DNA from: Nitrososphaeria archaeon
GTDB taxonomy: Archaea > Thermoproteota > Nitrososphaeria > JACIWG01
Assembly (NCBI GenBank): GCA_963752255.1
Contig: CAVVXT010000012.1
Span: forward strand, 228,326 to 292,325
DNA length: 64,000 bases
Direction of reading: 5' to 3'
Positions 40,461 to 53,498 of this stretch are shown here, one piece after another. Within the stretch, counting starts at the first letter, position 1, and each line of letters opens with the position of its first letter. A program made the translations under genes and the position numbers. The notes under the pieces are model-generated. The model was not told the DNA's origin and made no database searches. It saw nothing but the letters and a program-made list of their open reading frames with translations.

Positions 40461-41915
40461 CTATCTCTGCAACGTCTTAACAAGTTCCTTCTTGTGGTCG
40501 TATATCTTCACGCTTAGAGGCATCTGCCCGATTGCGAAGTGTGTCGCACACCCGAAGCAGGGGTCGTAAGCCCTAAAAGCCATCTCCACTTTATTTAAAA
40601 TCCCCTGATCCGCCACGCCTCCGTGAATCAAACCCTTAGCAGCATCCCTTATAGACATGCATATCGCTGGATAATTGTTCGTTGTGGCCACTATCATGTT
40701 AACATCCTTGATCAGCGCATCCTTGTCCAGAACGTAGTGATGGAACAGTGTTCCTCTTGCCGCTTCAACGACACCCACGCCTTCGCCTGGTTCCCCCGGT
40801 TTGTTCCTTACGCTCTTGCTTGTAATCTCCGGGTCTCTGCTCAGCTCCAGCGCTCTCTCGGTTGCGTATAAAAGCTCGATCAATCTCGCCCAATGGAAAA
40901 CTAATGTTCCGTGCACGGGCTTGCATCCAAGGGTCTTGTACATCTCCCCATACTCGGCCTGAGCTAAAGGTGTTGCCATACCATTTGACGCATTAAGTCG
41001 ACCGAGCGGTCCAACGCGGTAGATTCCACTGCCTTCTCCGCAGGTCAAGCCCTTCCAGCCCACCTTCTTAAGGTACGGGAATTTCGCGTAGGTCCATTTA
41101 TCGACGTGTTCGCCGACATTCGTCAAGTAATCCTCAGGCTCAAACTTTAAGAATTCATTACCTTTCGGGTCGACGACTCTGATCCTTCCATCATAGAAGT
41201 TGACTTTGTTGTTCTCGTCAACTGTCCCCATGTAGTATGTCCTCATTGTGTAGGCGTCGCTCTTGATCATGTCTACATACTCGCTGTTCCCAAGGACAAC
41301 ATCGTGGAACAGCTTCAGCGTGAACTTTGCAAACTCCAAGGATGAAGCAGCCATCTTTTCGATCTCAGCCCTCTTTTCTTCACTTAAGGGCTTGGATATT
41401 CCGCCAGGTAAACCGCAGACAGGGTGAGTTGCCTTCCCGCCTAAAATCTCGGTTATCTTCTGCCCATATGCCCTGTGCTTAATAACCTCTTTTGCAACGT
41501 CCATGCCGACCTTCTCGATCACCCCCAGTATGTTCCTCTTGCCCGGTGGCGCGTCAGGGCCAACAATAAAGTCTGGGCCTCCGAGGTAGTAGAAATGCAG
41601 GATGTGATCGTAAATAATGTAACCGGAATACATGAGTTCTCTGAGCTTCTTGGCTGCAGGAGGAGGCTCAACGTTGAACGCAGCATCCAAAGCTTTGGTC
41701 GCTGCTATGTGATGGGCTGTTGGGCAGACTCCGCATATTCTAGAAGTCAGAATCGGCATGAGCTCAGCTCTTCTTCCAACACAGAACTGCTCAAATCCCC
41801 TGAGCTCTGGAACCTTCAAGTAGGCGTCCTCCACTTCGCCTGCATCGTTGAGGAATATCGAAATGTTTCCGTGACCTTCAAGCCTTGTTATAGGGTCTAT
41901 AACCATTTCCTTCAT
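40461..41915 (-). CDS. mvhA: [NiFe]-hydrogenase large subunit, group 3c (MvhA)
   Basis: IDPITRLEGH, RICGVC (L1), EAARGTLFHHY, RAYDPCFGCATH (L2) plus C-terminal extension. Confidence 0.95.
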   Translation of the reverse strand: MKEMVIDPITRLEGHGNISIFLNDAGEVEDAYLKVPELRGFEQFCVGRRAELMPILTSRICGVCPTAHHIAATKALDAAFNVEPPPAAKKLRELMYSGYIIYDHILHFYYLGGPDFIVGPDAPPGKRNILGVIEKVGMDVAKEVIKHRAYGQKITEILGGKATHPVCGLPGGISKPLSEEKRAEIEKMAASSLEFAKFTLKLFHDVVLGNSEYVDMIKSDAYTMRTYYMGTVDENNKVNFYDGRIRVVDPKGNEFLKFEPEDYLTNVGEHVDKWTYAKFPYLKKVGWKGLTCGEGSGIYRVGPLGRLNASNGMATPLAQAEYGEMYKTLGCKPVHGTLVFHWARLIELLYATERALELSRDPEITSKSVRNKPGEPGEGVGVVEAARGTLFHHYVLDKDALIKDVNMIVATTNNYPAICMSIRDAAKGLIHGGVADQGILNKVEMAFRAYDPCFGCATHFAIGQMPLSVKIYDHKKELVKTLQR

Positions 41916-42898
41916 TCCTTAACCACCTTTCTCCTCAATATCGATGCCGGCAGAGAGTACATGTAAAATGTGCCAACAGGGTCCTTGATCTGGCTCATGA
42001 GCTTATCAACGTCTTCCTGAGTCAGGTGCTCCCTTTCATCTTCTAAGCCAAGTATGGACGCTACAGCACTGATCATAGCCGAACCCTGCTCCGGTGAATT
42101 TGGAGGTGGGCCACCGCATCCCGTACACGGCATGTCAACGGATAGGCATTGAGCCCCACATCCGTTGCGGGTTCCAGGTCCCATGCAGATGATCCCCTGC
42201 TCGAGCAGACACTTCTCCGGTTCAGGAACTTTTTCGTGAACACGGTAGATCCTTGAAATCTTCTTGTTCTCCTTCTTCCTTGGGCACTCGTCGCATACGG
42301 ACTTAAGAGGTGCGAGAACCGAACCCTTAGGTGGCAACTGCCCTTTCGCTATAGCATCGAGAGCGTTTGCTATTAGCTTGACTGGAGGTGGGCAGCCGGG
42401 CAAGTAATAGTCCACTTCAACGGTCTGGCCCAGGGTCCTGACAGTGTTATATAACTTTGGAAGACTGAGCACTCCTTCTTTCACTACAGTCTGAGTTTGT
42501 GGGACAACTCCGTCAAGATTAAGAGTAGATTTATTCTCCAAATAGACTTTATTTAAGATATCTTTGCATTCATATAGATTCGCCAGTCCAGGTACGCATC
42601 CTTCATGGGCGCAGGAGCCGAAAGCCACGAGCGTCTTAGACTTCTTCCTCAAGAGCTCGGCCATGTGTTTTTGCTCTTCGGTTCTCACTGAACCGTTGAA
42701 GAAGCAGATGTCAACATATTTGTCTGACATCGCTTCAACATCACTGTACTTGACGTCTATTGCGACAGGCCAGAAGACTATATCTGCCATCTGCACTAAA
42801 TCAAGTATCTTCTCGTTTAAGTCGAGCACCGCAATTTCGCATCCACCGCAGCTGGCAGCCCAGTAGAAGGCCACCTTCAGTTTCTCGTCGGCCATCAC
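41912..42898 (-). CDS. mvhG: [NiFe]-hydrogenase small subunit (MvhG)
   Basis: ASCGGCE, AFGSCA, YLPGCPP, CDEC, CLLEQGIICMGP.T..GCGAQC, PCTGCGG. Confidence 0.94.
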   Translation of the reverse strand: MMADEKLKVAFYWAASCGGCEIAVLDLNEKILDLVQMADIVFWPVAIDVKYSDVEAMSDKYVDICFFNGSVRTEEQKHMAELLRKKSKTLVAFGSCAHEGCVPGLANLYECKDILNKVYLENKSTLNLDGVVPQTQTVVKEGVLSLPKLYNTVRTLGQTVEVDYYLPGCPPPVKLIANALDAIAKGQLPPKGSVLAPLKSVCDECPRKKENKKISRIYRVHEKVPEPEKCLLEQGIICMGPGTRNGCGAQCLSVDMPCTGCGGPPPNSPEQGSAMISAVASILGLEDEREHLTQEDVDKLMSQIKDPVGTFYMYSLPASILRRKVVKE

Positions 42899-43785
42899 TT
42901 ATCAGCTTGACCTATATCGCTGAGTATTTTAGACGCGTTAACCCTCAAATCGTTTAAAGCGAGCTCTTCAGGTGTCAAGCCCATCGCTAAACCAAGTAGC
43001 TGGGGATAGTGCAGCACCGGAATACCGTAAACTTCGCTGAACATTTTCTCTATACGCACTTCGTTCGTGTCGTACATTATGTGACAGAAGGGGCAGACGG
43101 TTATCAGGGCCTGAGCACCCACGGCTTTTATGTGGCTCAACTTATCCCTTGCGAGCTGTAATGCGATTTTGTCGTTCACACCCACGCTCGGCGCGCCACA
43201 GCATTCTGTTTCGTCCATGTAGTCCAAGCATGTTGCTCCCGTTGCTTCAATCAAAGTCTTGAGCACCATCGGATTCTCCGGATCATCAAACCCAACATAC
43301 TCCTTGGGTCTAACGATGTGGCAGCCGTTGTGCTCTGCAACCTTTAACATCGTAAGCGGCTTAACTACCGAATTCTTTATCTTCTCCAAGCCTACGTCTT
43401 CGATCAAGACCTGCATAAGATGTTTCGCTTCTACTGTTCCATTAAATTCAAGCCCAGCCTCCTTCAAGTGTTTATTAATTTCCTCTCGCAACCCTCCGTC
43501 TTCCTTCAGCATCTTGCCAACTTTCTTGAGCGTTCCAGCGCAGCCTGGGCATAAAGTTATTATGTTTAGACCCTTCTGCTCAGCTAACGCCAGGTTCCTC
43601 GCAGCCAGTATAAGCATCATTTCGTGGCTAACAGGGTCCAGTGGTAGACCGCAACAGTTGAACTCGGGCATTTCAACCAGTTCAACACCTAACTTTGTAA
43701 GGGTCTTCCTAGCTGAGATTTCGAAAGCTGCAACCCTATACGGAATCGCGCATCCTAGGAACATAAGGTACTTGTTCTCTGCCAT
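42895..43785 (-). CDS. hdrB: Heterodisulfide reductase subunit B
   Basis: FLGC.IP and two CCG domains (NCCG/LCPGC; HNGCH/ECCG/VCPFCH..YD), HYPQLLGLAMG. Confidence 0.94.
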   Translation of the reverse strand: MAENKYLMFLGCAIPYRVAAFEISARKTLTKLGVELVEMPEFNCCGLPLDPVSHEMMLILAARNLALAEQKGLNIITLCPGCAGTLKKVGKMLKEDGGLREEINKHLKEAGLEFNGTVEAKHLMQVLIEDVGLEKIKNSVVKPLTMLKVAEHNGCHIVRPKEYVGFDDPENPMVLKTLIEATGATCLDYMDETECCGAPSVGVNDKIALQLARDKLSHIKAVGAQALITVCPFCHIMYDTNEVRIEKMFSEVYGIPVLHYPQLLGLAMGLTPEELALNDLRVNASKILSDIGQADK

Positions 43786-43788
43786 ATC

Positions 43789-44313
43789 CTAAACCACTTT
43801 CTTCTCCATATGTTTGAGAAAACCTACACCGTTCAGCGACTTGCGAATGCTCTCAGGGTTGCCTTTTGGCAACGGGGGCAGCCCTAAAGACTCCCGCTTT
43901 TTCAACCGCAGTTCTGGGATCTTGTAAGCGTAACCTGACTCTAGCACGCTGGCACACTGTTCCTTGAACACTTGGGGTACAACCCCCTCCTCTACAGCCA
44001 AGTTTCTCAGTACACGTATAACGCTTGCGACTTCGACGTCCTGTGGGCAGCGGTCTGTGCACGTAAAGCATGAAGCACACAACCATAGTGTATCGCTCTT
44101 TAACACCCTGTCCTTCAATCCAAGTTGCGCCATGCGTATTATCTGTCCAGGCCTGTAGGTGTCACTAAATCTTGCGACCGGACAGTCTGAAGTGCATGTT
44201 CCACACTGGAAACAGCGCATCAGCTTTTCTCCTCCGTGCATCTTGGAGATTTCATACTTGAACTTGGGATCGATCTCAGATGCCTTAACAACCTTCTTTT
44301 CTGTTTCGCTCAT
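43789..44313 (-). CDS. hdrC: Heterodisulfide reductase subunit C
   Basis: CFQCGTCTSDCP and WLCASCFTCTDRCP. Confidence 0.94.
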   Translation of the reverse strand: MSETEKKVVKASEIDPKFKYEISKMHGGEKLMRCFQCGTCTSDCPVARFSDTYRPGQIIRMAQLGLKDRVLKSDTLWLCASCFTCTDRCPQDVEVASVIRVLRNLAVEEGVVPQVFKEQCASVLESGYAYKIPELRLKKRESLGLPPLPKGNPESIRKSLNGVGFLKHMEKKVV

Positions 44314-44750
44314 TATTCATTAACCTCTTTAACCATAATTTGGTTTGGCCCCATCTCTTTGATCTTTTCCACCATGTCTTTGACCACAACTGCAAACTTA
44401 TCCCCTTCACTGGCCGAAATCCATTCCAGCCTCAGCCTTTCAGGCTCAATTCCTAATTCTTTGAGAACCCTCTTTAGGAGCATGATTCGTCTTAACGCCT
44501 TAAAGTTTCCACTAATGTAGTGGCAGTCAGATGGTAAGTGGCAACCGGCAACAAGCACTCCGTCCGCACCATCCCTGAAGGCTTCGAGAATGAATGACGG
44601 CTCTATTCTCCCACTGCACATAACACGCACGATCCTAATGTTAGGAGGATACTGAATCCTACTAACACCAGCAAGGTCAGCGCCAGCATAACTACACCAG
44701 TTACAAAGGAAACCAATAATTTTAGGCTCGAAGCTACCTTTTTCAGTCAT
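44313..44750 (-). CDS. mvhD: Hydrogenase iron-sulfur subunit MvhD
   Basis: [39 protein letters not shown]. Confidence 0.95.
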
Positions 44751-47700
44751 GCTTCCACCTCCAATAATGCCGCTTTAACCTGCGCCATAATCTCTTCAGT
44801 TGTAAAGTGCCCCATGGTGATGGCTTTCGTTGGACACGCTGCACCACATGCACCACAGCCCTTGCACAGGGCTTCAACCACGTGCGCGACAGCCTTACCT
44901 TCTTTATATTCCATTTCAATTGCCTTATACGGGCAAAGGTCTTCACATATCCTGCATCCACCGCAGAGATCTTCATCCACGTTCGCCACGATTCCTTCCA
45001 TCTCAAGCGACTCTTTCGAAAGTATGGTTGTCGCCCTTGCCGCAGCAGCGCAGGCTTGAGAGATACTTTCATCAACGTACTTGGGAGAATGCGCCATTCC
45101 GCAGAGGAATACACCTTCGGTTGCAAAGTCCACCGGCCTTAGTTTCATGTGGGCCTCCAAGAAGAAGCCATCCTTCGTCAACGGCACCTTTAGCATTTCT
45201 GCCAGCTTTCTATTGCCTGAATCAGCAATGGTAGCCGCGCTCAATACTACGATGTCGGGTTCGACTTCAACTTCTTCTCCTAGTGTTGGTTCCAAAAACG
45301 TAACACCTAGTTTTCCACCGTCATTTCCAACTTTAGGCTTTCTTGCGTCACTGTAGTTTACAAATAGCACTCCCTTCATAGCTGCTTCTCGGTAATAGTC
45401 TTCCTTGAAACCGTAGGTTCTCATATCTTTGTAAAGGATGTAAACTTCAGTTTCTGGGCTTACTTCTTTGATCTTTATGGCATTCTTTACTGCCTGGCCA
45501 CAGCAGATCCTTGAGCAGTTGGGGTTCTCTTCATTTCTGGCTCCGACGCACTGAATCATAACGAGCACATCTTGCATTGAAAGCTCCTCCAGCTAGCCTA
45601 TCTTCAAGTTCGTGCTGTGTTAGGACCCTAGGGTCCGTCCCGTAGAGGTATTCCGTCGGCTTGTATTCGACGGCTCCTGTAGCAACTATTACAACACCGT
45701 GCAAGATTTCCACTTCTTTCCCGTTTTCCTGCTTCACCTTTGATCTATAATTGCCTACGAACCCATATACGTCAACGACTTCTGCACCGGTGTAGACGTG
45801 TATCTTCCTATTTTCGGTGACGCCCCTGATCAGTTCTCCGAGTTTTTCTTTAGGATCGACCTTTTCTCCCAGCATGTAATGGATCTTCCTAAGGTGACCG
45901 CCCAGTTCCTTCTCCTTCTCTACAAGGTTCACTTCAAATCCCTGCTCTGCGAGTTTCAACGCAGCAGTCATGCCTGAGACCCCGCCCCCTATAACTCGGC
46001 CGACAGGTGTAACGCTTACACGCGGTTTCTGTAAAGGCTTCAGCAGTACTGCTTTTGCAGCGATCGACCGCACAAGATCCTTGGCCTTCTCGGTTGCCTC
46101 CCTAGGCTGGTGCATGTGCACCCAGCTACACTGGTCACGTATGTTGGTCATTTCAAAGAGGTAGGGGTTCAGTCCAGCTTCCTGCACCGTTTCCCTGAAC
46201 AACGGCTCGTGAGTCCTAGGCGTACACGAAGCCACAATAACACGGTTCAAATTGTTGGCTTTGATCTTCTCTGCAATAAGTTTCTGTGTGTCCTGAAACA
46301 TGTGTAAAGGTTAGCTTCCGCGTAGACCACGTTAGGAAGCCCTTTAGCGTATTCAACTACTTCAGGAACGTTGACCACTCCACCGATATTTATTCCGCAG
46401 TGGCACACGAACACGCCTACACGCGGTTCTTCCCCACTTACATCCCTCTCCGGTGGGTACTCTTTTTTGGCTACCAGAGTTCCCCTCTCGCCTGCGATTT
46501 CCTCCATCGCCATTGCGGCTGCGCCGCTTGCCTGTGCGACGCTTTCGGGAATATCCTTCGGACCGCTGAATGCACCACAGACGAATATGCCTTTCTTAGA
46601 CGTTTCCATCGGCAAGAAGGTTTCTGTTTCACAGAAGTTGTACCTGTTAAGCTTTATTCCGAAGACCCCAGCAAGCCCCGCAAAATTCTTCGGAGGCTGC
46701 ATCCCTGTCACCAGAACGATTAAGTCAAAATCTTCTGTTCTCGGATTATTATCTTCAACATAGTTTATGGAGATGTTGTTTGTATTCGGGTCCTCCGTTA
46801 CGCTAGCAACCCTGGACCTAACAAATCTTACCCCATATTCCTCTTCTGCACGATTCCTGTAGGCATCAAATTCCTTACCGTATGAGCGCATGTCCATGTA
46901 AAAAATAGATGCATCAAGCTTTGTCGGGGTGTGCTCTTTAGCTATCACCGCCTCCTTTATGCCGTACATACAGCACGCTGCGGAGCAGTAGTTGTTACCT
47001 AGCTGGTAGTCCCGCGAACCAACGCACTGAATGAAAGCGATCTTCTTAGGAATTTCGCCGTCCGAAGGCCTGAGCACAAGCCCACCATACGGTCCTGATG
47101 CGCTCAGGATTCGCTCGAATTCTATGCTTGTCACGACATTCGGGTACCGGCCAAACCCGTATTCACTCTTCAGTTTAGCGTCGAAGGTTTCAAATCCTGG
47201 TGCAAGAATTACCGAACCAACCTCTAACGTGGTCTCGCTGTCTTCTTGTTCGTAATCGATAGCCTGAGCTTTACAGATTTCAGAGCAGGTTCCGCAGCCG
47301 ATGCACTTTTCACGGTCAATAGTGTACTTTAAGGGAACAGCCTGAGGGTATTCGATATAGATCGCACTTCTCGTTCCAAGGCCTTCGTTGAAAGCGTCAA
47401 CCACTTCAACTGGACACTTCTGTGCACAGAGTCCACAGCCGTTGCATTTCTCTTCGATCACGCGCCTGCTCTTCCTTCGAATTCCCACTTTGAAGTTTCC
47501 TGACTCTCCGCTAAGGCCTGTTATTTCTGCATTTGTCAGAATTATGATGTTCGAGTGCCTTCCCGTTGCAACAAGCTTTGGTGAGAGGATGCACATCGAA
47601 CAGTCGTTCGTTGGGAAGGTCTTGTCAAGCTGGGCCATCACTCCGCCTATGCTTGGGCCCTGATCAACTAGGTAAACTCTAAAACTCGAATCCGCTAGAT

Positions 47701-47770
47701 CGAGGCTTGCCTGGATTCCAGCCACCCCTCCTCCTACTACGAGAACCGCACCAACCTTCTTGTCTGTCAT
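44747..47770 (-). CDS. hdrA: Large (~1000 aa) two-FAD-domain HdrA-family protein (frameshifts near 46295 and 45570)
   Basis: GGGVAG...DKTFPTNDC, inserted ferredoxin, IQCVGSRD, then [15 protein letters not shown], second [18 protein letters not shown]-terminal 2x[4Fe-4S]; spread over three ORFs. Confidence 0.9.
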
Positions 47771-48541
47771 CTACTCAACCTCCAACGCTTTATAGAGTGG
47801 TGTCTGGTCTTCAATTGAATCCACGGCTATCATGTTCTTCCTGCGCATGTTAACGACCTCCGTAAGAACCTCAGCAGGTTTCATATGGACGGCTGCTGCC
47901 AGATCTTTAACCGATTTAGGCTTATTCCGTGTGAGAATGTGAATCTTTTGACGAACATATTCGGATAAAACCATATCGTTGAGTAAGGAATCGAATTCCT
48001 CCTGCGGAATCTTTTCTTCGTAAACGTTATTCTTCTCAGTTAGCTCCCTTTCTCTTCCAACGATAACCCTTAACCTGAAATTAGCGGCAGCATTCTTCGC
48101 TGCCTTAAGGTTCAACAGAATGTCCTGGCTCTTGGCTGACACGGGTGAAGGACCCAATTTCCTGATACGTTCTGTGAATTCGGTCACCAGCATGGCGAAC
48201 CGCTGTCCTTCCGACGCTGAAACCCATTCCAGTTCCAGGCGTTCAGGCTCCAGCCCCGTCAGCGCCAAGAGCTTTTTAGCCAAGATGATCTTCCTCTCTT
48301 CGTACAGGTTTCCCTCAACATAGTGGCAGTCTCCGGGGTGGCATCCCAGAACCAGTACACCGTCAGCTCCCCTGATCAGAACCTCTAGGGGAATTGTCGG
48401 ATCTATCCTCCCACTGCACATAACACGCACGATCCTAATGTTAGGAGGATACTGAATCCTACTAACACCAGCAAGGTCAGCGCCAGCATAACTACACCAG
48501 TTACAAAGGAAACCAATGATCTTAGGCTCGAAGCTGCTCAT
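47771..48541 (-). CDS. mvhD: MvhD fused to a C-terminal putative winged-helix domain
   Basis: MvhD motifs (CNWCSY, MCSGR, GCHPGDCHY, WVSASEG) plus ~120 extra aa ending KPKSVKDLAAAVHMKPAEVLTEVVNMRRKNMI...PLY. Confidence 0.85.
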   Translation of the reverse strand: MSSFEPKIIGFLCNWCSYAGADLAGVSRIQYPPNIRIVRVMCSGRIDPTIPLEVLIRGADGVLVLGCHPGDCHYVEGNLYEERKIILAKKLLALTGLEPERLELEWVSASEGQRFAMLVTEFTERIRKLGPSPVSAKSQDILLNLKAAKNAAANFRLRVIVGRERELTEKNNVYEEKIPQEEFDSLLNDMVLSEYVRQKIHILTRNKPKSVKDLAAAVHMKPAEVLTEVVNMRRKNMIAVDSIEDQTPLYKALEVE

Positions 48542-48543
48542 CC

Positions 48544-50244
48544 CTATGACACCCCCAGAGTGGCTGTGGCCTCAGCCAACACCTGCGCGTCACTGAAGTG
48601 CCGCATGGTTATTGCTTTTTCGGGGCAGCTGGCGGCGCAAACGCCGCAACCCTTGCAGAGCACATCATTAACCCAAGCAACCCCCTTCTCATCCTTCTGT
48701 ATGGCACTGTAGGGGCACAGTTTGATACACGTTCCGCAACCCGTGCAAGCCTCCCCCTTCACCGAGGCCGTTATGGCTTCGGTTGTTACACGCTTAAGAG
48801 CCATGGGGATACCTGCCCTCGAAGCTGCCGCGTACGCTTGGGCGACGCTTTCTGGAATAGTCTTAGGGCTGTGTGCTGTTCCACAGACAAATATTCCGTC
48901 GGTGGCAAAGTCCACCGGCCTAAGCTTAACATGGGCTTCAAAGAAGAATCCGTCTGCTCCAAGTGGAACCTTAAGAATTTTGGAGAGCTCCCTGCTTCCC
49001 TCGGACTGGATCAGCGGAGTCGATAAAACGATGAGGTCGGGTTGGAGTTCAAGGGTTTCGTTGAGGGAGATATCGTGAACCCTTACGATGATCATTCCGT
49101 CTGCTTCCGAGAAGACTTCCGGAGGTTCTTCTTTTTCGAATCTTATAAATTGGACGAAGCTCTCTCTCGCCTGCTTATACTGTCCCTCAAATTCACGGCC
49201 GTAGGCCTGCATGTCCCTGTAGAGTACGGTGACTTCGGCCTCTGGGTACGTTTCTTTGATCTTTAAAGCGTTCTTAAGTGCGACTGCGCAACAGATTCTT
49301 GAACAATAGTTTATTCCACCCTCTTTTTCTTCCCTCGCGCCCACACACTGGATCATTACAACGTTCTTCGGCTCAGGCAGCGCCCCTTCTTTCAGAAGAC
49401 GCTCCAACTCCAATTGTGTGATAACTTCCTTGTTTTCTCCGTACAGATACATTCCCTTAGGCTTGAGGACATCCGCTCCCGTCGCGACTACAATGGTTCC
49501 TGCGTCAAGAATTTCTTCTTTACCATTGTTATCTATTGTTACCTTAAAGTTGCCTATGAAGCCCTCATTACGTTTTACTGTTGATGATGTGTAGGTCTTT
49601 ATGTTAGGATTTGAGCGGACGGCCTGTAGGTAAACTTCTAAAATTTCACCCGCGTCTTTTTCGCTCGGATATAGGCTGTAAAGCTCCCGAAGTTTTCCAC
49701 CCAGCTCAGGTTCCTTTTCTATCAAGTGAACCTTGAAGCACTGGTTTGCCAGGCTTAACGATGCTGTCATTCCCGCAACTCCACCACCTATCACAAGCGC
49801 CAAAGGCTGAACGTCAATTTCAGGCTCACTTTGAGGCTCAAGCAAGGCTGCTTTGGCCACGCACATCTTGACGACCTCTTTGGCTTTTTCTGTTGCTTTC
49901 TGAGGCTCCTTCGCGTGTACCCAACTGCATTGCTCCCTTATGTTCGCCATTTGAAATAGGTACTTGTTCAGCCCAGCTTCTTCGCACGCGCTTCTAAAGA
50001 GCGGTTCGTGAGTTCTCGGCGTGCATGAAGCAACAACTACACGGTTAAGTTCGTGTTTCTTGATAGCTTCTTTTAGTTTCCCCAGCCCCTCAGATGAGCA
50101 CGTGTAAAGGTTTCCCTCCGCGTGTACGACGTCTGTTAAGGTCTTTGCGTATTCGACGACGTCAGGAACGTTCACTACTGCTCCGATGTTGACTCCACAG
50201 TAGCATACGAAAACTCCTATTCGGCACTTCGTCTTCTCGCTCAC
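48544..50244 (-). CDS. hdrA: HdrA-family flavoprotein (566 aa)
   Basis: [46 protein letters not shown]-terminal ferredoxin. Confidence 0.92.
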   Translation of the reverse strand: MSEKTKCRIGVFVCYCGVNIGAVVNVPDVVEYAKTLTDVVHAEGNLYTCSSEGLGKLKEAIKKHELNRVVVASCTPRTHEPLFRSACEEAGLNKYLFQMANIREQCSWVHAKEPQKATEKAKEVVKMCVAKAALLEPQSEPEIDVQPLALVIGGGVAGMTASLSLANQCFKVHLIEKEPELGGKLRELYSLYPSEKDAGEILEVYLQAVRSNPNIKTYTSSTVKRNEGFIGNFKVTIDNNGKEEILDAGTIVVATGADVLKPKGMYLYGENKEVITQLELERLLKEGALPEPKNVVMIQCVGAREEKEGGINYCSRICCAVALKNALKIKETYPEAEVTVLYRDMQAYGREFEGQYKQARESFVQFIRFEKEEPPEVFSEADGMIIVRVHDISLNETLELQPDLIVLSTPLIQSEGSRELSKILKVPLGADGFFFEAHVKLRPVDFATDGIFVCGTAHSPKTIPESVAQAYAAASRAGIPMALKRVTTEAITASVKGEACTGCGTCIKLCPYSAIQKDEKGVAWVNDVLCKGCGVCAASCPEKAITMRHFSDAQVLAEATATLGVS

Positions 50245-51557
50245 GATATCGCCTCCTTAATCGTTTGTGCTATCGTTTCCGATGCACGAGCCGCTGCGCC
50301 GCTTGCCTGTGCGACGCTTTCGGGAATATCCTTCGGGGATTGGCAGTACCCACATACGTATATGCCAGGGACGTTTGTGTCAACTGGTGCAGTAAGCTGT
50401 TCCCATGACTTAAAGAACCCGTATTCGTCAAGGTCCAGCCCCATCGTTTTGGCAATAATCTTGTTGTCTTTCTTAGGCACCAGCGCAGGACACAGCACGA
50501 CCAGATCGGTCTCCAAAACCTTCATCTTACTTGATGCAAGCTCTTCATAGTGAATCTGCAGATTTTTTGTTAAGGGGTCTTCGTTTATTCCACCAGGATG
50601 AGCTTTGACGTATTTGATTCCATATTCCCTTCTGGCTCTATCGACAAATTCCTGAAAACCCTTTCCAACAGCTCTCATATCAATAAACATGATGTAAACA
50701 TCCGTTTCTGGAGCGTGATCCTTTATCAGTATGGATTCCTTTGTCGCGTAGACGCAGCATACGCTCGAACAGAACGGAAACTCTCCATGCTGGCTTCTTG
50801 AGCCAACACACTGGACGAAAACAACGCTTCTAGGCTCCTTCCCATCGGACGGCCTAACGAGGTGGCCACTCGTTGGTCCTGAAGCGCATATTATTCTTTC
50901 AAATTCCATGGAATGTACGACGTTCTTAAACCTTCCGTAACCGTATTCATTCATGGCAGATGGGTTGAATATGTCGAAACCGGTTGCGAGTATTATGGAT
51001 GACACGTTTATCGTTTTTTCTTTAGGCTGCTGTTCATAGTTGATAGCCTTCGAGGGACAGAATTTCTGGCAGACCTTGCAAACGCCCTTAGTGAAGTACA
51101 GACAGTGTTCCGGGTCGATAGTCGCAACCAAGGGTACAGCCTGCTTGAACAGCATGTACACCGCCTTCCTGTTCCCAAGTCCCATGTCAAATTCGTTTGG
51201 AACCTTCACAGGACACTTCTCCATGCAGGTGCCGCATCCTGTGCATTTTTCAGATTCCACATAGCTGGCTTTCCTTAGAATTTTGACATTGAAGTCTCCT
51301 GCTTTACCCCCAACTTCTTTAACCTCAGAGTAGGTTAACAGCTCGATGTTTGGGTGCCTGTAGCATTCGATCATCTTTGGCGCAAGTATACAGATCGAGC
51401 AGTCCAGTGTTGGGAAGGTTTTGTCAAGCTGAGCCATGCGTCCGCCTATGCTGGGCAGTTTTTCGACTAGGTAGACTTTGGTTCCGCGGTTAGCAAGGTC
51501 CAAGGAAGCCTGGATGCCCGCTATGCCGCCTCCGACTACCAGAACCGAATTCGACAT
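50241..51557 (-). CDS. hdrA: HdrA-family flavoprotein (438 aa, lacking the N-terminal Cys domain)
   Basis: GGGIAG, DKTFPTLDCS.CIL, inserted 2x[4Fe-4S], [25 protein letters not shown]. Confidence 0.92.
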   Translation of the reverse strand: MSNSVLVVGGGIAGIQASLDLANRGTKVYLVEKLPSIGGRMAQLDKTFPTLDCSICILAPKMIECYRHPNIELLTYSEVKEVGGKAGDFNVKILRKASYVESEKCTGCGTCMEKCPVKVPNEFDMGLGNRKAVYMLFKQAVPLVATIDPEHCLYFTKGVCKVCQKFCPSKAINYEQQPKEKTINVSSIILATGFDIFNPSAMNEYGYGRFKNVVHSMEFERIICASGPTSGHLVRPSDGKEPRSVVFVQCVGSRSQHGEFPFCSSVCCVYATKESILIKDHAPETDVYIMFIDMRAVGKGFQEFVDRARREYGIKYVKAHPGGINEDPLTKNLQIHYEELASSKMKVLETDLVVLCPALVPKKDNKIIAKTMGLDLDEYGFFKSWEQLTAPVDTNVPGIYVCGYCQSPKDIPESVAQASGAAARASETIAQTIKEAIS

Positions 51558-51733
51558 AAGTTTGAACGCCCTTTTTCCGTTTGTTTGAGTGATTGTTTAG
51601 GGGTAAATAATCTTTGTGTTTGTAAGACATTATTAATGCATTTAAGACCTTCTTCATCTAATGCTACGTGAACGTTAAACGTTTCCGTCATTAAGATGTA
51701 GCCTTCTTTTCTTTTAAATAAGGACAAAGACAG

Positions 51734-53075
51734 CTACATTCTTCTCATGGCAATCTCTGCAGCCAAAACCATGGGTTCCCAGGTCTCACATACTGAAGGA
51801 GCGTAGCAGGTATCAGCTTTCATCAGCTCCTGGACCGTCATATTATTCTGGATGGCCAGCGAAAGAGCGTTGACACGTTGGGTTACTTCTTCGCCGCCGA
51901 CAATTTCTCCGCCGACAATCATTTTGGTTTCTTTTTCAACTATGAGCTTCACTTTCAATGGAAATGCTCCGGGGTAATAAAGTGCCTTTGTGTGGCCGCT
52001 AATTTTGCCGACGACAACTTCGAACCCTAATTTAGAGGCCCAAAATTCTGTTAGGCCAGTCGCCCCCACCTCGAAGTCGAAGATTTTGGAGACCCATGAG
52101 AAAAGTGTTCCCGGAAAGATTGAATATCCTCCCGCAGCGTTTATGCCAGCTACCTTACCCTCTCTGACAGCTGTTGACCCAAGCAGAGGAAGAGCCGGTC
52201 TGTGAGTAACCATATGGGTTGTTTCAGCACAGTCTCCGACAGCGTAAACGTCTTCCGCGTCTAGTCTGCATTCGAATATTCGTCTTTACGCCACCCGTTT
52301 CACCGATGACCAATCCCGCTTTTTTGGCTAGCTCAACGTTGGGCCTGACCCCTGCGGCGTTTATGACAATATCGGCAGCGACCTCTTCACCCCCGACCGA
52401 TACAGCCCGCACCCTGTCTGCTCCAAGAATCGCTCCCGCCGGCTTTCCTAAAATAATTCCGATACCGTTCCCTTCAAGGCTTTTTTGGATCTCCTCTGAC
52501 ATGTCCCGGTCAAGAAGCCTTGGAAGAATCGAGGGAAGCATTTCGACGATCGTGGACTTTATTCCCTTTTGCTTGAAAGCGTCAGCAGCTTCTAGGCCGA
52601 CGAGGCCAGATCCTATTACAGCAGCCGATTTAGCGGTCTTCATAGCATTTGCTAACTTCTCGCCGTCACTCAGAGTATGAAGGTTAAAGACGCCTTCTTT
52701 GTTCATCCCCTCTATCGGAAGACTGAAGGGTGCTGCGCCTGTGGCTAGAATTAGGCTATCGTACTGGAGCGTTTCCTGTTTTCCGTCTTTCGTTTCAATT
52801 TCGACTTTCTTGGCCTTCGTATCGAGGTTTGTGGCCGTCACTTCCAAGCGCAGGTTAAACTTCATCATCTTGTAGAATGTAGGAGGGTAAACGACCAAGT
52901 TCTCGAATGCAGGTATATGGCCGCTGAGCACGAAGGGAAGACCGCACCTCGAGTATGCTCCAACATTCTCTCTGGTTACAAGAGTTATCTCAGCTTCCCT
53001 GTCGGTTTTTCGAGCCGCCACAGCCGAATCAACGCCTGAAGCGTTGGCGCCTATGATGACTATTTTCTTAGGCAT
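51734..53075 (-). CDS. FAD-dependent pyridine nucleotide-disulfide oxidoreductase (NADH oxidase / CoA-disulfide reductase-like; frameshift at ~52260)
   Basis: IVIIGA..SG, YSRCGLP single redox Cys, LATGA, IGSGLVGLE, MQTS..DVYAVGDCAE after correction, C-terminal dimerisation domain (CYAP). Confidence 0.9.
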
Positions 53076-53081
53076 TCCTGA

Positions 53082-53498
53082 TTATCCTTCCCTAGCAATT
53101 TCCTTATGCCATTCCAGAGACTTTTCGAAGTCCATCAGTGTTCCAAGATCTTTAACGAGTTCGCTTGGGGACACGAGCAGGATCCATCCTTCGCCGTAGG
53201 GATCTTCGTTAAGCTTTTCTGGGCTTGTACCCACTTCTTTGTTTACTTCCTCAATCTTTCCACTGACTGGTGCTACAAGTTCTGATACGGTCTTCACCGA
53301 TTCGACCGTGCCGAAGGACTCGCCCTTTTTTATTTCGGCCCCTACGCTAGGAAGCTCAGCGAACACTATTTCCCGTAACTGTTTTTGTGCATAATCTGTA
53401 ACACCGATTCTGACCTTACCGTCTTCAACCTTGACCCACATCCAATCCTTTGAATAATAGATGTCTTTGATTACTTCATAATCACCGACTTTAACCAA
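53082..53498 (-). CDS. gcvH: Glycine cleavage H-like lipoyl carrier protein
   Basis: IGVTDYAQ, VESVKTVSE (lipoyl Lys retained), APVSG, NEDPYGEGW. Confidence 0.93.
   Translation of the reverse strand: MVKVGDYEVIKDIYYSKDWMWVKVEDGKVRIGVTDYAQKQLREIVFAELPSVGAEIKKGESFGTVESVKTVSELVAPVSGKIEEVNKEVGTSPEKLNEDPYGEGWILLVSPSELVKDLGTLMDFEKSLEWHKEIAREG

Follow-up and report, generated by a model that had tools for sequence, protein, structure and literature searches.

Layout of the gene cluster

The stretch of DNA analyzed here, called the window below, comprises 64,000 nucleotides of contig CAVVXT010000012.1 in the genome assembly of a Nitrososphaeria archaeon (GCA_963752255.1). On the minus strand of positions 40461 to 53498 it carries eleven genes in one orientation, in the order gcvH, nox, hdrA438, hdrA566, mvhD with a C-terminal extension, a large hdrA, mvhD, hdrC, hdrB, mvhG, and mvhA (Table 1). 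The products are a lipoyl carrier (GcvH) and a flavoprotein disulfide reductase (here called Nox), followed by the proteins of an expanded heterodisulfide reductase (Hdr) complex and its hydrogenase (Mvh). HdrABC-type complexes are widely distributed among bacteria and non-methanogenic archaea. One study calls it unclear which disulfide Hdr uses in Bathyarchaeia (PMC7886697), and another likewise states that the thiol/disulfide substrate of Hdr is unknown for Culexarchaeia (PMC9723716). The locus and its relatives in other genomes provide a candidate for this question that can be tested at the bench with three proteins, namely, GcvH, Nox, and an LplA ligase.

Gene identities were assigned by Pfam, NCBIfam, and PDB searches of the translations. 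These searches and the coordinates bore out an earlier first-pass annotation of this DNA, which had described eleven co-oriented genes from gcvH to mvhA at the same positions. Neighboring genes abut, overlap by 1 to 4 nt, or lie no more than 6 nt apart, with the sole exception of the gap between nox and hdrA438; the annotation had put this single sizeable gap at about 175 bp, and it measures 176 nt. MvhA contains the motifs RICGVCPTAHH near the N terminus and DPCFGCATH near the C terminus (read from the translation), which we take to be its Ni-binding Cys motifs. The annotation had also placed a winged helix-turn-helix on the longer of the two MvhD proteins. The extension itself is conserved in Bathyarchaeia, where it aligned over its full length in five loci (L109, L123, L124, L128, and L129), but the only Pfam hits behind the helix-turn-helix label are below threshold (E values of 0.003 to 0.03).

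Table 1. Features of the gcvH-nox-hdr-mvh cluster, in window coordinates
Feature	Position	Strand	Description
gcvH	53082..53498	-	138-aa lipoyl carrier of the nox-linked GcvH subfamily; Pfam GCV_H 5.8e-37; NCBIfam TIGR00527 131.1 bits (cutoff 115.85)
nox	51734..53075	-	Class I flavoprotein disulfide reductase of the Nox/CoADR/Npsr type, 446 aa when intact; Pyr_redox_2 4.4e-51, Pyr_redox_dim 5.6e-18
Intergenic gap nox/hdrA438	51558..51733	-	176 nt, AT-rich (33.5% GC)
hdrA438	50241..51557	-	Pyr_redox_2 and Fer4 domains (Pfam); HdrA by PDB search
hdrA566	48544..50244	-	Pyr_redox_2 and Fer4 domains (Pfam); HdrA by PDB search
mvhD with C-terminal extension	47771..48541	-	FlpD 3.6e-52 over residues 8-130; extension of ~120 aa
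Large fused hdrA	44747..47770	-	~1005 aa when intact
mvhD	44313..44750	-	145 aa; Pfam FlpD 2.7e-56
hdrC	43789..44313	-	174 aa; Pfam Fer4_8
hdrB	42895..43785	-	296 aa; Pfam CCG in two stretches, 3.9e-29
mvhG	41912..42898	-	[NiFe]-hydrogenase small subunit; Pfam Oxidored_q6 6e-24; best NCBIfam match VhuG, below cutoff
mvhA	40461..41915	-	[NiFe]-hydrogenase large subunit; Pfam NiFeSe_Hases 4.6e-37; best NCBIfam match VhuA 434, below cutoff of 800
~127-nt near-identical repeat	44592..44720 and 48391-48517	.	5' ends of the two mvhD paralogs; 96-97% identity (blastn)

The gcvH-nox pair as a conserved module

In Bathyarchaeia, gcvH and nox form a conserved module. In a survey of Nox restricted to one genome per species, in which the best 80 of 484 relatives were kept as loci, 75 loci had at least 600 nt of upstream sequence. 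A co-oriented gcvH was found within 1 kb upstream of nox in 59 of them, and in 49 of those 59 the two genes were separated by 60 nt or less. The homologs of Nox at 60 to 97% identity belonged to Bathyarchaeia wherever they were named. A more even sample was made up of 151 Bathyarchaeia genomes of at least 80% completeness, centered on the genome G401, and a strong Nox ortholog (defined by at least 49% identity) was present in 67 of them. Forty further loci from this sample were taken in the order of their handles, and gcvH adjoined nox in 20.

As the first-pass annotation had noted, the GcvH of the window keeps its lipoyl lysine, which is K69 in the motif TVESVK; ESVK was invariant in all 26 aligned nox-linked GcvH proteins. 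The active-site cysteine of Nox is C44 (SRCGLPF), invariant in 22 of 22 sequences. The description of Nox as a "single-Cys" flavoenzyme in that annotation is correct for the active site but not for the protein as a whole, as C282 was likewise invariant and C423 nearly so.

A quick tree of GcvH was built from 52 rows, which included 32 of 61 nox-linked sequences and 12 comparison rows, 10 of them truly adjacent to GcvT. The nox-linked GcvH proteins formed one group (SH-like approximate likelihood ratio test [SH-aLRT] support of 97), with the GcvH of the window inside it and the GcvT-adjacent GcvH proteins apart, so that the possibility raised earlier of a grouping with canonical glycine-cleavage H proteins was not realized; GcvT was not found in this genome either. 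Nor was this gene found in 34 of the 67 Bathyarchaeia genomes with a strong Nox, and exactly one GcvH match was present in 23 of those 34. Where GcvT does exist, a different and higher-scoring GcvH adjoins it. Because the nox-linked GcvH proteins form a separate clade and many Nox-bearing genomes are without GcvT, the pair appears to work outside glycine cleavage, and we consider it probable that GcvH and Nox are a dedicated redox pair independent of that system. With a strong Nox in such a share of the sampled Bathyarchaeia genomes, often without a T protein, the module is of interest by itself. Our searches of the literature, supplements aside, turned up no description of a GcvH-Nox pair or of its recurrent linkage to Hdr in Bathyarchaeia.

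Additional GcvH-like genes were observed in some of the loci. In G513 and G476, nox is followed by a GcvH-like gene (L123:14598-15005 and L124:14293-14700) that keeps the ESVK motif but, unlike the Cys-free nox-linked GcvH, has two Cys residues, reminiscent of LbpA, the lipoate-binding protein of the sHdr system. Two loci with a divergent arrangement (described below) contain a second GcvH-like gene on a long branch (L012:367-966 and L022:628-993; 199 aa, extended at the N terminus). It is found ~2 kb past hdrB, from which it is split by a gene with a PhoU/MazE domain.

An expanded Hdr-Mvh block with asymmetric HdrA proteins

The hdrA, hdrB, and hdrC genes of the cluster are the only such genes of this genome. 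In the PDB search, HdrA438 aligned to residues ~144 to 567 of solved HdrA chains (E values of ~1e-141 to 1e-144). It consists of the flavin adenine dinucleotide (FAD) domain and the inserted ferredoxin domain, with a Cys197-type motif (DKTFPTLDCSICIL), and is without the N-terminal and C-terminal ferredoxin domains. HdrA566 aligned to HdrA residues 12 to 244 and 319 to 653 (E value of 6.5e-145) and has neither the inserted ferredoxin domain nor a Cys197-type motif. In the large HdrA, a 438-like N-terminal half is fused to a 566-like C-terminal half, each 47 to 51% identical to its split counterpart (tblastn); in its translation the Cys197-type motif lies in the N-terminal half and an HdrA566-type start is found in the second half. 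The N-terminal Fe-S domain and the Cys197-type ligand are complementary in the HdrA438-HdrA566 pair, and the same pattern holds for the fused halves.

Tandem and fused asymmetric HdrA proteins are known from anaerobic methanotrophic (ANME) archaea and Moorella, with HdrA2 of Methanosarcina as a further comparison, and in ANME archaea the complementary loss has been read as an enforced heterodimer (PMC9012536). As in the window, one partner there has the Cys197-type motif and no N-terminal domain, and fused forms exceed 1000 aa. The arrangement in the window differs in that the fused order is reversed, with the Cys197-bearing half first, and in that a split and a fused form stand in tandem, each with its own MvhD.

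HdrB contains two complete CCG motifs, and its residues C12, C44, C45, C79, and C82 and C155, C195, C196, C231, and C234 were invariant in 19 of 19 sequences. HdrC has eight invariant Cys residues (C34, C37, C40, C44, C79, C82, C85, and C89), as needed for two [4Fe-4S] clusters. The MvhADG-HdrABC complex of methanogens, for which structures have been solved (e.g., 5odc and 8rvu), likewise combines a two-CCG HdrB, an HdrC with two [4Fe-4S] clusters, HdrA FAD domains, MvhD, and MvhGA, as does this single array, and flavin-based bifurcation among H2, ferredoxin, and a disulfide is likely to be common to both. Unlike the methanogen proteins, HdrA, HdrB, HdrC, MvhG, and MvhA of the window fall below the NCBIfam equivalog cutoffs (HdrB 284 versus 345, HdrC 128 versus 160, and the HdrA pieces 533 to 573 versus 1100). 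The methanogen HdrA is a single four-domain chain of ~650 aa that forms a homodimer, whereas the window has a split pair and a fused pair with complementary domain loss and two MvhD proteins.

The expanded block of hdrA438, hdrA566, extended mvhD, large hdrA, and mvhD is not peculiar to this genome, since it was also found in the five Bathyarchaeia loci in which the MvhD extension aligned. In two of these (L128 and L129; G475:C237 and G479:C54), the block lies ~3 kb from gapdh-pgk with no nox or gcvH in the locus. It thus seems that Hdr genes recur in the vicinity of gapdh-pgk. A different organization was seen in the closed Bathyarchaeum genome G401 (L096, G401:C1:920000-927100), where the closest HdrCB (69% HdrB identity) occurs with an MvhD-ferredoxin-MvhD fusion, a DHODB-type Fe-S protein, and a GltD/NfnB-like NAD(P)H flavoprotein, with HycI downstream. 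Judging from its gene content, this locus may represent another NAD(P)H-linked HdrCB design.

Linkage of gcvH-nox to Hdr and Mvh genes in other genomes

The arrangement seen in the window, with gcvH-nox linked to the Hdr genes, recurs in a congener (G001) and in a genome of a sister genus (G003, with 74% GcvH identity). Mvh or Hdr genes were present in 18 of the best 80 nox loci, one of which (L041) is weak. Thirteen loci of one clade have the order gcvH-nox-mvhG-mvhA(-hdrA/mvhD-hdrC-hdrB)-gapdh-pgk, and in three loci (L012, L021, and L022) hdrB-hdrC-hdrA/mvhD-mvhA-mvhG diverges from gcvH-nox. In G513 and G476, an expanded hdrA block diverges from nox, and nox is followed by the GcvH-like gene with two Cys residues described above and by a convergent hdrCB. 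Smaller combinations include hdrA-mvhD-gcvH-nox (G424), hdrA-mvhD-gcvH-(nox remnant)-hdrC-hdrB (G462), hdrC-hdrB-gcvH (G544), hdrCB divergent from nox (G447), and nox divergent from hdrA (G452). Hdr or Mvh genes stand next to gcvH, nox, or both in at least six arrangements, several of which are without a hydrogenase, and it is for this reason that we regard the gcvH-nox pair as tied to Hdr itself.

On a quick tree of Nox, the presence of Mvh or Hdr genes required five changes, of which at least four were forced by supported branches. The Hdr sets of the different arrangement types are not orthologous to each other: the HdrB of the window is 40 to 49% identical to the nox-adjacent HdrB proteins of other types and 55 to 84% identical to HdrB proteins located elsewhere. 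An HdrB-family protein was found in 66 of the 67 genomes with a strong Nox, versus 62 of the 84 others. By a rough estimate, which is not a computed value, a gene in a genome of ~1.7 Mb with one to three Hdr loci would lie within 3 kb of one of them by chance in a few percent of cases. Conservation of the linkage, a point on which the first-pass annotation had laid weight, is found within the genus, in the sister genus, and across these arrangements in Bathyarchaeia, but in a minority of genomes.

In another family of the window's class, one locus (L009, G036:C6:961000-980500) has hdrC-hdrB-hdrA-mvhD-mvhG-mvhA in canonical order. Upstream of it lie one GcvH gene, at 7 kb, and a tandem pair of highly divergent GcvH-like genes, at 4 kb.

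Context in the host genome

The genome (2.1 Mb in 19 contigs) is 94.7% complete, and the searches for gcv and mcr genes spanned all of it rather than the window alone. McrA (PF02249) was not found in it, and neither was ComA (PF02679); CoB synthesis and a ComA-independent route to CoM were outside the search. The organism, a soil archaeon that occurs in soil and peat samples, looks non-methanogenic, as the first-pass annotation had surmised from the window. Other known partners of Hdr fared no better: DsrC was considered as the Hdr substrate and has no support, as it was not found in the genome, and an Hdr linked to methylenetetrahydrofolate reductase (MTHFR, MetF) as in acetogens was rejected here, since no such enzyme was found.

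A check of the genome for glycine-cleavage and lipoylation genes, which that annotation had left for later work, gave a mixed outcome. Both gcvPA and gcvPB lie on contig C7, and the genome has the catalytic subunit of an LplA-type ligase (C3:51645-52406); in addition to GcvT, LipA was not found, with LipS1 and LipS2 outside the search. A radical-SAM gene beside gcvPB was considered as a lipoyl synthase and rejected, as it is MiaB-like. The only lipoyl/biotinyl-domain proteins detected in the genome are three GcvH proteins. Apart from the one in the window, the GcvH on contig C14 is of the canonical type and stands among housekeeping genes. The third, on contig C2 (G000:C2:40321-42980, L092), is divergent (163 aa) and is encoded in one orientation with a DGC-domain protein, an OsmC-like protein, ArsR, and a low-molecular-weight phosphatase; going by these neighbors, the array may be a lipoyl-dependent peroxidase or arsenic-stress module.

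A possible electron circuit from NAD(P)H to Hdr through lipoyl-GcvH

The first-pass annotation had suggested that the disulfide reduced by HdrB is lipoamide on this GcvH, and we here develop that suggestion into a scheme of two modules. The first would consist of a lipoylated GcvH of a distinct subfamily and a homodimeric FAD-containing, single-Cys flavoenzyme of the Nox/CoADR/Npsr family. The second would be a flavin-based electron-bifurcating Hdr complex with two asymmetric HdrA units (one split into 438 and 566 aa, the other fused at ~1005 aa), one MvhD for each HdrA unit, a single HdrCB, and a single group 3c-type [NiFe] hydrogenase, MvhGA. Nox would exchange hydride between NAD(P)H and the lipoamide disulfide of GcvH via a mixed disulfide at Cys44, and the swinging lipoyl arm would shuttle the dithiol/disulfide to HdrB, at whose two noncubane clusters it would replace CoM-S-S-CoB. 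Electrons would pass in either direction between these clusters, HdrC, and the HdrA flavin, from which one branch would lead to ferredoxin and the other via MvhD to MvhGA and H2. The net reaction, near equilibrium and reversible, would be 2 H2 + Fd(ox) + NAD(P)+ <-> Fd(red) + NAD(P)H. What has been observed is the gene content, the conservation of the gcvH-nox pair, its repeated juxtaposition with Hdr, and that the known alternative substrates were not found in this genome; we infer every electron-transfer step of this chain.

The redox potentials are ~-0.41 V for H2, ~-0.5 V for ferredoxin, and ~-0.32 V for NAD. For lipoamide an E0' of -0.29 V has been given (PMC6067878), and for lipoic acid a value of -0.325 V (PMC8760232). 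Given these potentials, bifurcation of H2 electrons to ferredoxin and lipoamide would release little free energy and would therefore be reversible. [quoted passage not shown] The frequent presence of GAPDH and PGK genes nearby is in keeping with a function at the NAD(P)H pool. Relatives of Nox that resemble Npsr use a swinging thiol arm and a carrier domain (PMC7969121); by analogy, a lipoyl arm on GcvH would fit the swinging-thiol chemistry of this enzyme family.

The first-pass annotation had also suggested modeling HdrB with GcvH. A complex of HdrB, HdrC, and GcvH was predicted with an interaction prediction score from aligned errors (ipSAE) of 0.47 (0.52, 0.43, and 0.47 in the individual runs), while the best of three controls scored 0.00. 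At least 89% of the contacts agreed between runs, and the predicted local distance difference test (pLDDT) value of the partner was 86 or higher. The pass mark on the ipSAE scale is reached by 58 of 80 solved complexes and by 2 of 110 mismatched pairs; scores of 0.60 or less account for just 7 of those 80 solved complexes and for both passing mismatches. The prediction passed in this weak band, with no interface reported, and lends the scheme weak support that moved our estimate only slightly.

Taking the recurrent juxtaposition and this model together with the points against them that are gathered below, we place at a little short of an even chance the proposal that lipoyl-GcvH is the Hdr-side dithiol/disulfide, with electrons exchanged among NAD(P)H, Nox, lipoyl-GcvH, and HdrB and coupled to ferredoxin and H2. 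A broader version is more doubtful. In it, the physiological "heterodisulfide" on which HdrABC-type complexes act in Bathyarchaeia and the recipients of their genes would be lipoamide bound to a dedicated GcvH, with Nox as the NAD(P)H port and Hdr, with or without Mvh, as a reversible bifurcating-confurcating hub for NAD(P)H, ferredoxin, and H2 that ties NAD(P)H at the level of GAPDH to hydrogen metabolism. If true, this version would name the substrate of Hdr in a major group of non-methanogenic archaea.

Comparison with other Hdr systems linked to lipoyl carriers

The idea is not new in kind, since GcvH has been proposed as a disulfide carrier for HdrB in Culexarchaeia (PMC9723716) and the scheme parallels the sHdr-LbpA-Lpd system (PMC6067878). 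The Culexarchaeia cluster (Ehe-HdrA2B2C2-GcvH) resembles the window in that a TACK archaeon, likewise non-methanogenic, has gcvH embedded among Hdr and hydrogenase genes. It differs in having a membrane-bound group 4 hydrogenase, SdhA, and CdhA, with no Nox mentioned in the accessible text (PMC9723716); the window has a soluble Mvh-type hydrogenase, an expanded HdrA set, and a conserved Nox.

In the sHdr system, LbpA is essential, and in the model presented for it lipoamide is reduced and then reoxidized by dihydrolipoyl dehydrogenase (PMC6067878, also for what follows on sHdr). Both systems tie an Hdr-type complex to a lipoate carrier with a conserved lysine (K69 in the window), and in archaea the sHdr genes are also linked to a pyridine-nucleotide disulfide oxidoreductase (Lpd in Sulfolobaceae), with a model that connects Hdr, lipoamide, and NAD+. 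LbpA has two conserved cysteines, one N-terminal and one C-terminal, that GcvH proteins lack. The carrier in the window is without these cysteines, and a single-Cys Nox/CoADR flavoenzyme takes the place of Lpd. Further differences are that the window has a single hdrCB and a hydrogenase, of the HdrABC/MvhD type, in a host that is an anaerobe-type H2 metabolizer, and that the cluster has no sulfurtransferase, dedicated ligase, or LipS genes.

The Wood-Ljungdahl gene clusters of acetogens, in which lpdA and gcvH occur by MetVF or MetFV-HdrCBA-MvhD, are similar in placing an Lpd-type flavoenzyme and a GcvH near Hdr/MvhD modules. An electron relay through GcvH and LpdA is discussed for them and judged unlikely for MTHFR in PMC8760232; the genome studied here differs in that no MetF was found.

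Alternative readings of the locus

The scheme has to be weighed against a reading in which the two modules are independent. GcvH-Nox would then be a general NAD(P)H-driven relay to protein-bound lipoamide, which might feed OsmC/Ohr- or peroxiredoxin-type enzymes or balance NAD(P)H at GAPDH; Hdr would reduce another disulfide, and the proximity to Hdr-Mvh would result from rearrangement and joint horizontal transfer. A number of observations argue for this reading and weigh against the coupled circuit. When 48 of the 67 strong-Nox genomes were examined (19 were left out), Hdr or Mvh genes adjoined the best nox copy in 9, or in 11 with second copies and remnants included. Adjacency of nox and mvhA was found in just 5 of the 36 genomes that hold both genes, and MvhA orthologs were present in 30 of the 84 genomes that had no strong Nox, as well as in 3 that gave no GcvH match. 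Blocks of hdrCB-mvhGA that are 70 to 85% identical occur without gcvH-nox, and in G453 (L109) the same expanded Hdr-Mvh block has no nox in the 620 nt upstream, at which point the contig ends. The commonest genes downstream of nox are those for GAPDH and PGK, whose open reading frame (ORF) clusters were found in 39 and 37 of the 80 loci, respectively. A canonical dihydrolipoyl dehydrogenase is encoded on contig C19 (NF004947, 750 bits versus a cutoff of 592), and because of it Nox is not needed merely to reoxidize lipoamide. The AT-rich gap between nox and hdrA438 contains a TATA-like sequence, TTATTTA, ~47 nt before the hdrA438 ATG (read by eye), and may hold a separate promoter, in which case gcvH-nox and the hdr genes could be transcribed separately. 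The third GcvH, encoded among OsmC-like, DGC-domain, and ArsR genes, points to the use of GcvH-like carriers in other redox contexts in this organism. Finally, the co-occurrence and adjacency counts on which the circuit leans are not phylogenetically independent.

Several lines of evidence nevertheless speak against independence. The juxtapositions are differently organized and involve non-orthologous Hdr sets; gcvH is embedded in hdr operons in G462, G424, and G544, with cases that have no hydrogenase; almost all strong-Nox genomes have HdrB; none of the other known Hdr substrate systems that were sought (McrA, ComA, DsrC, and MTHFR) turned up in this genome; and the predicted HdrB-HdrC-GcvH complex passed, if weakly. 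Taken as a whole, we regard independence of the two modules as unlikely. The specific suggestion of the first-pass annotation, that HdrB may reduce the lipoamide of GcvH, finds partial backing in the recurrent juxtaposition and the complex model but has against it the low frequency of Hdr adjacency and the occurrence of the same block without gcvH-nox.

A further reading gives the locus a role in sulfur handling. Nox would be an NAD(P)H persulfide or polysulfide (or CoA-persulfide) reductase, the GcvH arm would carry sulfane sulfur, as has been discussed for LbpA, and Hdr-Mvh would feed or drain electrons for H2-dependent sulfur reduction or for sulfur oxidation. The best PDB match of Nox, the Npsr of Archaeoglobus fulgidus (6pfz, 2e-89), followed by coenzyme A disulfide reductase (CoADR; 4fx9, 1e-73), is in its favor; Npsr prefers persulfides and polysulfides and works with a carrier domain and a swinging CoA (PMC7969121), and the sHdr-LbpA system oxidizes sulfur (PMC6067878). 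Nox shares with CoADR, Npsr, and NADH oxidase (6pfz, 4fx9, 3kd9, and 6ruz) the fold family, with FAD and NAD(P) Rossmann domains and a dimerization domain, and one active-site Cys near the FAD. It is set apart from these enzymes by its genetic pairing with GcvH, and it scores below every NCBIfam equivalog cutoff (CoADR 346 versus 579; H2O-forming Nox 240 versus 600), a result that weighs against the function that the coupled circuit assigns to it. Against the sulfur reading, Nox aligned to residues 3 to 451 of the 551-aa 6pfz chain and has no domain past residue 446 and thus no rhodanese domain. The GcvH of the window has no Cys at all, and nox-linked GcvH proteins have a mean of 0.25 Cys, so that the two cysteines typical of LbpA are missing from the window protein. 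No DsrE, TusA, or rhodanese genes are present in the cluster (a genome search for DsrE and TusA was not made), DsrC is not found in the genome, and the Hdr is of the HdrABC/MvhD type with a hydrogenase and not of the hdrC1B1A-hyp-hdrC2B2 type. These features make sulfur handling improbable.

Ordinary glycine cleavage, with GcvH as the H protein, Nox as an unusual L protein, and the proximity to Hdr irrelevant, is rejected as largely refuted and appears very improbable: the GcvH does clear the NCBIfam gcvH equivalog cutoff and gcvPA and gcvPB are present on C7, but GcvT is not found here or in about half of the Nox-bearing Bathyarchaeia genomes, a distinct, higher-scoring GcvH stands next to GcvT where that gene exists, the nox-linked GcvH proteins are a clade of their own with the C14 copy as the canonical type of this genome, and a bona fide dihydrolipoyl dehydrogenase is encoded elsewhere.

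Composition and origin of the array

The cluster has a GC content of 48.8%, while the mean of 13-kb windows in this genome is 40.6% (standard deviation of 2.5), which places it in the top 0.1% of windows. The shift is common to all eleven genes, whose individual GC contents range from 44.7 to 50.1%. HdrB (E value of 1e-30 or less) was found in 12 of 401 sampled genomes of the archaeon's own class, which is dominated by one family without HdrB, and the best match outside its own family was 45% identical. Identities to Bathyarchaeia proteins are higher, at 70 to 85% for the cluster proteins, with up to 84% for HdrB and up to 85% for MvhA. These comparisons suggest that the whole 13-kb array is foreign in composition and was probably acquired from Bathyarchaeia by this genome's family.

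Frameshifts and the integrity of the genes

All genes listed in the first-pass annotation are there, but it had overlooked that nox carries one 1-nt frameshift and the large hdrA two. In this assembly nox is spread over two frames (52224-53075 and 51734-52213) and the large hdrA over three (46247-47770, 45531-46301, and 44747-45577). Relative to G001, the breaks are single-base indels at 52260 (one extra base, in nox) and at 46298 and 45563 (in the large hdrA). G001, from the same genus, has ~97% DNA identity to the cluster and contains an intact 446-aa nox ORF and an intact 1043-aa hdrA ORF. In all four of the public runs analyzed, which come from three studies, every contig that covers the three sites has the frame-restoring form, and these contigs include some that are almost the same as the window (for example, one of 1329 nt with 4 differences). 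Because all covering contigs in all four runs restore the frame, the three frameshifts must have arisen in the assembly or, at the most, represent a rare allele. There is hardly any doubt that the genes of the cluster are real and intact in nature.

The three frameshifts within 13 kb, together with breaks in several cluster genes of G003, might suggest a decaying, horizontally acquired pseudogene array, but the intact form at all three sites in contigs of every run, near-identical ones included, the intact ORFs of G001, and the breakage of other genes in this assembly as well, which indicates consensus errors, leave this reading scarcely credible, and we reject it.

The other broken genes are a second [NiFe]-hydrogenase large subunit (G000:C10:100772-102732), which matches in two frames, and gcvPA (G000:C7:17806-19192), which is cut into ORFs of 369 aa and 80 aa with in-frame stops; both look like further consensus errors of the assembly. 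With respect to the repeats at the 5' ends of the mvhD paralogs, none of the short-read contig pieces listed spans the flanks 44632-44706 and 48432-48506. When G001 is compared with the window, gaps of 36 nt and 41 nt appear at both hdrA/mvhD junctions, one of which yields an 810-aa fusion ORF of hdrA566 and mvhD; these differences are either real variation or misassembly. One contig (run X1, depth of 5.8) joins window position 46517 to position 50293, connecting the large hdrA to hdrA438 with 3775 nt skipped and 44 letters shared at the joint, and reflects either a variant in the population that has only one HdrA unit or a chimeric assembly of the paralogs.

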